Source of the DNA: a virus | Lineage: Duplodnaviria; Heunggongvirae; Uroviricota; Caudoviricetes | IMG/VR virus record: IMGVR_UViG_2585427970_000001 | Length of the DNA stretch: 64,000 nt | Reading direction: 5' to 3' (one strand) | Shown here: positions 34,822-35,404 of the stretch, piece after piece | Layout: each line of letters starts with the position of its first letter | How positions within the stretch are numbered: the first letter of the stretch is position 1 | Translations under genes and position numbers: made by a program | Notes under the pieces: model-generated | Told to the model about the DNA's origin: nothing | Seen by the model: the letters and a program-made list of their open reading frames with translations, nothing else | Database searches by the model: none

Positions 34822-34846
34822 GTGGCAGGAGGATCCCTCCTGCCAC
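34822..34846 (+). other. perfect palindromic hairpin between the autotransporter and the Skp-like gene
   Basis: GTGGCAGGAGG-atc-CCTCCTGCCAC, 8 nt after the autotransporter stop; no U-tract, so not a canonical intrinsic terminator. Confidence 0.4.
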
Positions 34847-34861
34847 ATCCGGGTAGTCATA

Positions 34862-35404
34862 ATGAGTTCTGTAATGAAATTTTCTGTTGCTAATGCAGTA
34901 TTGTTGCTGTTGCTGATTGGATTTACTGGTGTTATTTATATGAATAAATCAAAAGAAATTGCAGTTGTTAATATTGATGCTGTTTATAATCAGTCTTCTG
35001 CCGGAGAACTGGTCAGAACGCATCTGAGTGAAGTTAAGATTATTCTTGAAAAGGGATACAAGGATGCGCTAAAAGCATTCGCAGATAATGAAAATAAAGA
35101 TGTGCTGCTTCTTGATGCCAGACAAAAACTGGAAAGACAATATGTTATCGAGGAGCACAATGCAAAGATGGTATTATCCCGTGCAATAGATAATGCCATA
35201 AATAACTGGAGAAAAGATAACACAGGAAATATTGCTGTATTGTCTTCAGGTGTTGTGCTTTCACATAACGATTCAGCCGATATCACAAAAGAAATCATGG
35301 CTCTGGTTGAAAAAGAACATCTGGTTTTTAGTCAGTTACCGAAAGTGGAAGTGAAAGCTCAGGAGGAGATAAAAAGTAAAGAGGGAACGGAAGAAGGTAA
35401 ATAA
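34862..35404 (+). CDS. Skp/OmpH-like periplasmic chaperone
   Basis: 180-aa ORF; hydrophobic N-terminus; KEIAVVNIDAVYNQSSA and NIAVLSSGVVLSHNDSADITKEIMALV align with the Skp N- and C-terminal core strands ([45 protein letters not shown]) from memory; central part helical and charged. Confidence 0.65.
   Translation: MSSVMKFSVANAVLLLLLIGFTGVIYMNKSKEIAVVNIDAVYNQSSAGELVRTHLSEVKIILEKGYKDALKAFADNENKDVLLLDARQKLERQYVIEEHNAKMVLSRAIDNAINNWRKDNTGNIAVLSSGVVLSHNDSADITKEIMALVEKEHLVFSQLPKVEVKAQEEIKSKEGTEEGK

Follow-up and report, generated by a model that had tools for sequence, protein, structure and literature searches.

Directly behind the gene of a giant autotransporter adhesin, a 64,000-nt stretch of viral DNA (Caudoviricetes; IMG/VR record IMGVR_UViG_2585427970_000001; hereafter the window, meaning the whole stretch that was analyzed) carries a gene for a 180-aa protein that very probably belongs, by its modeled fold, to the superfamily of the periplasmic chaperone Skp (OmpH). 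The gene is under purifying selection and recurs next to autotransporters of three lineages in two phyla. The hairpin that separates it from the autotransporter gene has kept its pairing while its sequence changed. The protein is predicted to be anchored in the inner membrane by its N-terminus, and it may serve as a dedicated, Sec-proximal escort of the linked autotransporter. The features at the center of the analysis, with the open reading frames (ORFs) as they stand in the window, are the following.

26865..34814, + strand: gene of a UpaE-type (AIDA-class, type Va) autotransporter adhesin of 2649 aa, the presumed client; ORF with stop codon 34812-34814
34822..34846, + strand: hairpin with an 11-bp perfect stem and a 3-nt loop, without a U-tract; GTGGCAGGAGG-ATC-CCTCCTGCCAC
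34862..35404, + strand: gene of the Skp/OmpH-fold protein, 180 aa; open ORF with stop codon 35402-35404
34877..34942, + strand: hydrophobic N-terminal helix of that protein, residues 6-27, predicted to be an uncleaved signal-anchor (model helix; hydropathy)
34955..35311, + strand: Skp-like body, residues 32-150, modeled as a strand, a helical hairpin or "tentacle" (38-72, 79-119), a returning strand and a C-terminal helix

Fold and family of the 180-aa protein

An earlier note, made from the sequence of this region alone, had placed a Skp-like gene directly downstream of the autotransporter, and the gene is found there: its ORF is open and starts 47 nt past the autotransporter stop. The first ATG (34862) is likelier to be the start than the second, since the N-terminal MSSV is kept in all close homologues and homologue P0011 has an Ile in place of the second Met. 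In the nearest record, plasmid pAPEC201602 of an avian Escherichia coli, the RefSeq start is the second ATG (34874, 176 aa). The Shine-Dalgarno sequences ahead of the ORF are weak. Comparison with five homologues gave ratios of nonsynonymous to synonymous substitution (dN/dS) of 0.14-0.36, with dS values of up to about 1.7, which shows that the ORF is under purifying selection.

The family membership was investigated by profile, sequence and structure searches. The assignment to OmpH in the earlier note was only partly reproduced by the search with hidden Markov models, as the protein by itself matched Pfam OmpH (PF03938) over residues 87-147 only, with 17.7 bits (E 0.0044) against a gathering score of 32.4, while 22 of 23 aligned family members matched at E<=0.01 (best 7.3e-10) and some relatives lay above the curated OmpH cut-off (47.7 bits). 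An NCBIfam scan of the 180-aa protein gave no match, its one hit being at chance level. Membership in the OmpH family, as judged from these profiles, rests on transitive homology. The relatives found by a word-indexed search of 5.8 billion proteins numbered 26, all from Escherichia or Salmonella, and HMMER, run with a profile of six sequences over 1.84 billion cluster representatives, collected 210 clusters at E<=1e-3. Profile searches against the sequences of the PDB placed OmpH entries first when broader alignments were used, but only at E 0.009-0.26, and with a shallow alignment they returned no Skp match. With hhalign, the protein aligned end to end with the E. coli Skp sequence (E 5.9e-4, probability 29%), KEIAVVN being paired with DKIAIVN at the N-terminal end and DITKEIMALV finding its partner at the C-terminal end. 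By direct BLAST, similarity to E. coli Skp was not significant (15-25 bits).

The AlphaFold2 (AF2) model of the protein alone was built from an 84-sequence alignment and reached a mean predicted local distance difference test score (pLDDT) of 84.9 and a predicted template modeling score (pTM) of 0.68. It consists of a helix (6-27), a strand (32-36), two long helices (38-72 and 79-119), a second strand (124-128) and a further helix (142-150). When this model was used in a Foldseek search, the top 10 matches were all Skp/OmpH chains with a probability of 0.95-1.00, and the next match had an E of 2.4. While sequence alone is borderline, the structure model and Foldseek together settle the identity as a Skp fold, and we assign the protein to the superfamily with high confidence. 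The characteristic architecture of the family, in which N- and C-terminal strands form a beta body and a long helical hairpin is inserted between them, is present in the model. The N- and C-terminal Skp core strands and the helical middle part that had been read from the sequence were thus recovered by AF2, Foldseek and hhalign.

In RefSeq, copies of the gene are variously named "OmpH family outer membrane protein", "membrane protein" and "hypothetical protein". Many copies are therefore already recognized at the level of the OmpH family; it is the tethered, autotransporter-linked branch that appears to be undescribed, and our literature searches turned up no account of an autotransporter-linked Skp-like or OmpH gene. 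In one locus (L018, 2760-2830; also in L019) the codons of the N-terminal helix are out of frame with the remainder of the Skp-like gene. The frame shift in L018 falls at a seven-T run, GGTTTTTTTATATG, and could reflect a faulty assembly, a pseudogene or a slippery tract.

Linkage to autotransporters and proposed role

The autotransporter upstream contains ESPR, PATR and AC_1 domains (Pfam), and its barrel was identified by NCBIfam TIGR01414 (3.4e-119), with partial matches to the ECSE_1600, MisL and AIDA-I families. The 3' end of its gene has about 91-93% nucleotide identity to the "phase-variable autotransporter adhesin UpaE" of uropathogenic E. coli (UPEC). In the window the 7950-nt ORF of the autotransporter is unbroken; in pAPEC201602 (L001, 4903-12815) it is annotated as frameshifted and is 37 nt shorter.

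Among 5426 complete E. coli genomes the Skp-like gene was detected in 253 (4.7%), in 259 places and with at least 80% coverage in 251 genomes. The UpaE-type barrel gave the same counts (253 genomes, 259 places, 251 genomes with at least 80% coverage), and from this equality it follows that in E. coli neither the gene nor the barrel occurs without the other. The Skp-like gene follows an autotransporter in every close homologue examined and was never seen in the bamA-lpxD neighborhood. In Salmonella enterica subsp. diarizonae the order is the same and the spacer is again 47 nt, with an invertase-like gene, a GerE regulator and a 2632-aa autotransporter preceding the gene; a metagenomic contig (L006) has the same gene order and the 47-nt spacer as well. 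Homologues with 42-76% identity are likewise preceded by UpaE-like autotransporters, so the position is also kept by more diverged alleles. P0027, which is 42% identical, follows an autotransporter that is 82% identical over 1915 aa (locus L007, on a contig that also contains relaxase genes), and P0029, which is 49% identical, follows a UpaE-like autotransporter with 75% identity. The disparity between the two proteins at L007 suggests that the helper there is evolving much faster than the autotransporter, or that it was replaced by recombination.

The linkage extends to more distant relatives. On the Yersinia ruckeri plasmid p17Y0159.2 a homologue with 33.6% identity (tblastn, residues 33-164) is located 24 nt past an autotransporter with AC_1 and PATR domains whose identity to the one in the window is only 28%, and on a second Y. 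ruckeri plasmid (L021) a truncated Skp-like copy lies behind a degraded autotransporter that is annotated as an S6-family peptidase (PATR repeats). In Desulfovibrio, the gene for a Pmp-repeat protein of 1700-1990 aa that has a PF03797 barrel immediately precedes the homologue (about 29% identical), and when species-representative genomes were scanned with the Desulfovibrio alignment, such a Pmp-repeat/PF03797 autotransporter was upstream in 5 of 9 Desulfovibrionaceae species-level loci. The corresponding scan of species representatives with the enterobacterial alignment gave no confirmed locus, which indicates that the E. coli-type gene is absent from them. As is expected of an accessory protein, the gene is a co-oriented neighbor of an autotransporter and the pairing is kept across diverged homologues. 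No other in silico argument for a functional partnership is as strong as this adjacency to autotransporters of three lineages in two phyla.

Two further arrangements were observed among the relatives. In the Y. ruckeri plasmids a SapC-family gene comes next after the Skp-like lipoprotein gene (L020, 6332-7827, Pfam 2.8e-48; L021, 8917-10039), forming an autotransporter, Skp-like and SapC trio. At L016 (4024-9734) a family member whose signal peptide looks cleavable is encoded 33 nt upstream of a 1720-aa protein, for which no Pfam or NCBIfam match was found; this pair may represent another large surface protein with a Skp-like partner, in reverse order.

We propose that the 180-aa protein is a divergent member of the Skp/OmpH superfamily that would reside on the periplasmic face of the inner membrane, held there by its uncleaved N-terminal helix. 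As only 4-5 residues link this helix to the first strand of the body, the Skp-like body (probably a trimer, as in Skp) would be seated on the membrane itself, with its helical arms reaching into the periplasm. Its role would be that of a Sec-proximal holdase for the linked UpaE-type autotransporter, which would bind the beta-domain and/or the passenger of 2,200 residues, still unfolded, at the exit from SecYEG and keep them secretion-competent until they reach the beta-barrel assembly machinery or the translocation and assembly module (BAM/TAM). The protein would be a helper and not an absolute requirement. Both genes would be transcribed together from a promoter upstream of the autotransporter, and the hairpin, which lacks a U-tract, would set the ratio of the two messages at the RNA level, by halting part of the transcription and/or holding off exonucleases; the transcription unit would end at an inverted repeat at 35440-35477. 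The chances of this explanation as a whole seem to us evenly balanced, and our judgment is equally divided on its central element, that the protein is a dedicated helper of the adjacent autotransporter.

Besides the sub-threshold match to OmpH and the lack of an NCBIfam match described above, several observations weigh against this explanation. There are family members with unrelated neighbors (L008, L013-15, L017, L028, L030), and frameshifted or truncated copies of the Skp-like gene (P0020, P0023, L018, L021) indicate that its loss is tolerated. The positive-inside rule is ambiguous for the N-terminal helix, with one Lys before it and two after, and a stable GC-rich hairpin could stop transcription often, in which case the downstream gene would barely be expressed. 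In the study of UpaE, ipuR-upaE was described as a two-gene operon, and the downstream gene, OmpH and Skp went unmentioned (PMC6083910). The plasmid used in that study carried upaE alone, with a reverse primer that ends at the stop codon, and the 271-kDa UpaE produced from it in K-12 was surface-located and active in biofilm formation and in binding to the extracellular matrix (PMC6083910). As UpaE was displayed from an upaE-only plasmid, the Skp-like gene is at most a helper; it is dispensable at least when housekeeping Skp/SurA is present and expression is forced.

Skp binds outer-membrane proteins, including autotransporters, early at the inner membrane, and the housekeeping protein is promiscuous. 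The 180-aa protein might accordingly be a general extra Skp paralogue that adds capacity for outer-membrane proteins or has another role in the envelope, and that hitch-hikes in the cassette without client specificity. Members without a neighboring autotransporter and the display of UpaE in K-12 in the absence of the gene are consistent with this, as is the mobility of the cassette, which occurs on a phage-plasmid, as an insertion sequence (IS)-flanked chromosomal copy and in a tRNA-linked island. A passenger gene of this kind would not, however, be expected to recur with autotransporters of three lineages whose mutual identity is 28% or less, or to equal the barrel in its numbers of genomes and places in E. 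coli, or to hold its position as a diverged allele (42-49%) behind much better conserved autotransporters. We consider a general paralogue rather unlikely and retain the dedicated helper as the preferred reading.

Membrane anchor and intercistronic hairpin

Residues F7-Y26 of the 180-aa protein form a hydrophobic run of 20 residues, with a mean Kyte-Doolittle value of 2.32 over 19 of them (F7-I25), and this stretch is kept in P0027 and P0028. In the window protein no small-x-small site follows the hydrophobic core before the first strand begins, and inspection of the sequences of P0007, P0011, P0013, P0027 and P0028 revealed none that is conserved. The Y. ruckeri homologue has a lipobox, LLSGC, followed by Asp; according to the Lol-avoidance rule, an Asp after the lipobox Cys is the classical inner-membrane retention signal in Enterobacterales. 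Desulfovibrio homologues carry LSGC lipoboxes 6 residues ahead of the first strand, and by a crude motif count, which misfiles some sequences and is of qualitative use only, a lipobox is present in more than half of the family. As the Y. ruckeri and Desulfovibrio relatives carry lipoboxes, tethering to the membrane with a short linker looks like a family trait that is realized via two chemistries. The hydrophobic N-terminus without an obvious peptidase site, from which the earlier note had suggested tethering, thus fits both the signal-anchor-like prediction and the lipid-tethered relatives. In the window protein it probably constitutes an uncleaved signal-anchor that tethers the protein to the inner membrane.

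Skp-family proteins normally have cleavable signal peptides, and by a crude rule about 50 of 235 members have a site resembling that of signal peptidase I. The N-terminal stretch could therefore be an atypical cleaved signal peptide that releases a soluble periplasmic Skp-like trimer, and the 180-aa protein does contain a weak candidate site, G20-F-T22|G23. This site is not conserved in P0011, P0013, P0027 or P0028, however, the core of about 20 residues has the length of a transmembrane segment within what AF2 predicts to be one continuous helix, and homologues elsewhere are tethered by a lipobox, including the Cys-Asp form of Yersinia. A cleaved, soluble form is in our view unlikely, and the uncleaved signal-anchor is preferred.

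The hairpin between the two genes is a perfect 11-bp palindrome at exactly the position that had been noted earlier, and it indeed lacks a U-tract, the 10 nt past the stem being ATCCGGGTAG. Eight of the 11 pairs are G-C. In its 71-nt context the hairpin has a folding energy of -25.2 kcal/mol (z = -4.3), and 1 of 200 shuffled sequences folded equally well. It is present once in the window, even when 3 mismatches are allowed (0 copies expected by chance). The GC-rich stem-loop of an intrinsic terminator is thus present and the U-run directly past the stem is absent. Consensus scans of 34500-35700, which includes the intergenic gap, detected neither a terminator-like site nor a sigma-70-like promoter on the + strand, and there was no Rfam match in 34600-35700.

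The hairpin pairs were tabulated version by version in a script; the MAFFT alignment had mis-registered L007. In UPEC, the E. coli strain SY038, Salmonella and L006 all 22 bases of the stem agree except for one mismatch in Salmonella, with a loop of ATC, GGA, TGT or ACA and flanks that vary too. The stem in L018, GTTGCCGGAGA/TCTCCGGCAAC, again has a perfect 11 bp, and three positions are changed on both sides. In L007 the stem, GTGTGGTAGGG-GAAA-CCCTACCACAC, has 11 perfect pairs, and in the ungapped register six positions are changed on both sides. Across six versions of the hairpin, 65 of 66 stem cells are paired, both-side changes occur at up to 8 of the 11 positions, and the strength is about -20 to -24 kcal/mol in every version. 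That pairing is kept while the sequence changes indicates that selection acts on the folded strand, as opposed to a binding site in the duplex. None of the five distinct Escherichia/Salmonella-type versions of the junction has a T-run past the stem. At the Y. ruckeri junction an imperfect hairpin is followed by TTCTTTTTTT, which has the shape of a canonical intrinsic terminator.

The conserved pairing suggests that the hairpin probably works as an RNA structure, setting the output of one cistron apart from that of the other. Partial termination, a block to 3' exonucleases or shielding of the 5' end of a processed downstream message could each have this effect. Intercistronic stem-loops that set mRNA stability or partial termination occur in fimbrial operons after the major-subunit genes and as repetitive extragenic palindromic (REP) elements in malEFG. 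The window hairpin resembles them as a stable, GC-rich structure between co-oriented cistrons that lacks a U-tract and is conserved in its folding. It differs from REP elements and bacterial interspersed mosaic elements (BIMEs), which are dispersed in many copies, in that it is not a repeated element, with one copy in the 64-kb window. On the sequence evidence, co-transcription of the autotransporter and the Skp-like gene with the hairpin as a modulator may well apply, and we see no tilt in either direction.

Alternatively, the hairpin might be an effective stop, either without a U-tract or with the aid of Rho, so that the Skp-like gene would be separately and weakly transcribed or would be a decaying remnant. 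The strength of the stem in every version, the terminator-like junction in Y. ruckeri, the weak Shine-Dalgarno sequences, the frameshifted and truncated copies and a published operon that stops at upaE can all be read in this way. A remnant, however, is difficult to reconcile with purifying selection at dN/dS 0.14-0.36 over a dS of up to about 1.7, or with the 251 of 253 E. coli copies that span at least 80% of the gene. Nor is there a promoter-like site between the two genes, or a T-run past the stem in any of the five Escherichia/Salmonella-type versions. This reading appears improbable to us, and a modulating hairpin within one transcription unit is favored.

That the palindrome acts as DNA, as a protein-binding site, a recombination site or a repeated extragenic palindrome, is very improbable: the palindrome is perfect and the window version has GGATCC, and so a Dam site, in its loop, but homologous junctions keep the pairing and change the sequence, GATC is absent elsewhere and the element is single-copy in the window. 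Two local roles were considered and rejected. AGGAGG in the 5' arm was dropped as a sequestered ribosome-binding site for its distance of 29 nt to the start codon and its lack of conservation in L007 and L018, and a Dam switch at the loop GATC was dismissed on the absence of GATC from all other versions.

Mobile cassette, known systems and significance

The region has 99.5% identity to plasmid pAPEC201602. The neighbors there (phd/doc, a late promoter-activating protein, two terminase genes, a C1 repressor, an Icd-like gene, an antirepressor and Ref) identify the replicon as a P1-like phage-plasmid. The cassette (25619-36044) is cargo of this phage-plasmid, inserted just upstream of phd/doc, and contains in order a PapI-like gene (-), a PapB-like gene (+), the autotransporter, the hairpin, the Skp-like ORF, a 15-bp inverted repeat and a gene with a GerE-type helix-turn-helix (HTH). 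The accompanying features are listed below.

25619..25849, - strand: FaeA/PapI-family regulator gene at the head of the cassette; ORF, annotated in pAPEC201602 and SY038
26056..26559, + strand: ORF with a PapB/FocB-family regulator gene, upstream of the autotransporter; annotated in pAPEC201602 and SY038
35440..35477, + strand: 15-bp perfect inverted repeat with an 8-nt loop, then TGTTG; 36 nt past the stop of the Skp-like gene
35658..36044, + strand: GerE/LuxR-type HTH gene, 128 aa; Pfam GerE 1.2e-10

The RefSeq start of the PapB/FocB-family gene is internal to its ORF (348 nt). In the classical pap phase switch there are two Dam sites; the papI-papB-like intergenic region of the window (25850-26211) has a single GATC (25926). 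The inverted repeat, which does not pass the strict T-run rule applied in the terminator scan, is likely to close the transcription unit. The GerE-type HTH gene travels with the cassette, as it is downstream of the Skp-like gene in both pAPEC201602 and SY038. It was considered as an orthologue of UPEC IpuR and rejected, because only the HTH motif is common to the two.

In E. coli SY038 a cassette of identical layout is on the chromosome, between ISL3 and IS66 remnants and near a type VI secretion system cluster. At the chromosomal locus of UPEC the order is ipuB, ipuA, a LuxR-type regulator, upaE, the Skp-like gene and tRNA-Arg, so that the upaE module there has the invertases ipuA/ipuB and an upstream LuxR regulator in place of the Pap-type regulators. 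The ipuA-regulator-upaE-Skp-like flank of this chromosomal locus is also held by a phage record (L022, MG710528.1, "Escherichia phage GER2", 1447-11531), in which the autotransporter is annotated as two "long tail fiber proximal subunit" genes; this appears to be a mis-annotation.

With Skp itself (OmpH, HlpA; PDB 1SG2, 1U2M; PF03938), the housekeeping periplasmic holdase of E. coli, the modeled protein shares the fold, a beta body with a long inserted alpha-helical hairpin, and motifs at both ends of the sequence are recognizably common. It differs in its hydrophobic N-terminus, which is predicted to be uncleaved where Skp has a signal peptide, and in the location of its gene, which is behind an autotransporter on mobile DNA, whereas that of Skp is between bamA and lpxD. 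The periplasmic part is acidic, with an isoelectric point (pI) of 5.6, whereas Skp is strongly basic (about 9.5). Among the homologues the pI ranges from 5.7 to 9.4 without a clean rule, and an acidic pI as a mark of autotransporter linkage was rejected, since two linked copies, P0011 and P0013, are basic, and the unlinked P0028 is acidic.

As regards role, the closest precedent for a dedicated helper of an autotransporter is, by analogy, SadB, a Salmonella inner-membrane lipoprotein that is encoded together with the trimeric autotransporter SadA and improves the surface display of SadA (PMC3953254). In both cases a small periplasmic protein with a membrane tether, predicted in the case of the 180-aa protein, is in one unit with an autotransporter adhesin. 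The two are unrelated in fold and family, as structure searches with the 180-aa protein returned Skp/OmpH only, and SadB serves a type Vc trimeric partner from a gene upstream, whereas the presumed partner of the 180-aa protein is monomeric, of type Va, and has the helper gene on its downstream side. SkpA of the "extended translocon" of the type IX secretion system (PDB 8GL8, Bacteroidota) is part of another secretion system, has about 10% identity and operates without the involvement of an autotransporter.

Classical autotransporters are usually described as self-sufficient except for general periplasmic chaperones and BAM/TAM, and it is debated what keeps a passenger of over 2,000 residues from folding or being degraded on its way from Sec to the outer membrane. 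If the 180-aa protein were only a dispensable general paralogue, the finding would amount to routine annotation, which many copies already have in RefSeq as "OmpH family outer membrane protein". If the proposed explanation is true, type Va secretion would gain a dedicated periplasmic component. An inner-membrane-fixed Skp paralogue inherited together with its adhesin would then offer a direct handle on the step from Sec to the outer membrane, being open to deletion, swapping and cross-linking. It could also explain the poor heterologous expression of some large adhesins, which bears on surface display and vaccine work. More tentatively, and with somewhat less confidence than in the single case, the family may comprise a Skp branch of tethered holdases, anchored by a transmembrane helix in Escherichia and Salmonella and by lipid in Yersinia and Desulfovibrio, that has been repeatedly recruited as private escorts of very large type Va autotransporters at the Sec exit, with the hairpin setting the ratio of autotransporter to escort. 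In that case giant autotransporters would depend on more than the general SurA/Skp/DegP pool, and type V secretion would include a client-specific periplasmic part that accompanies the adhesin on phages, plasmids and islands. As the Skp-like gene travels both with the UPEC colonization factor UpaE and with a P1-like phage-plasmid, it is relevant to the spread of adhesin modules.

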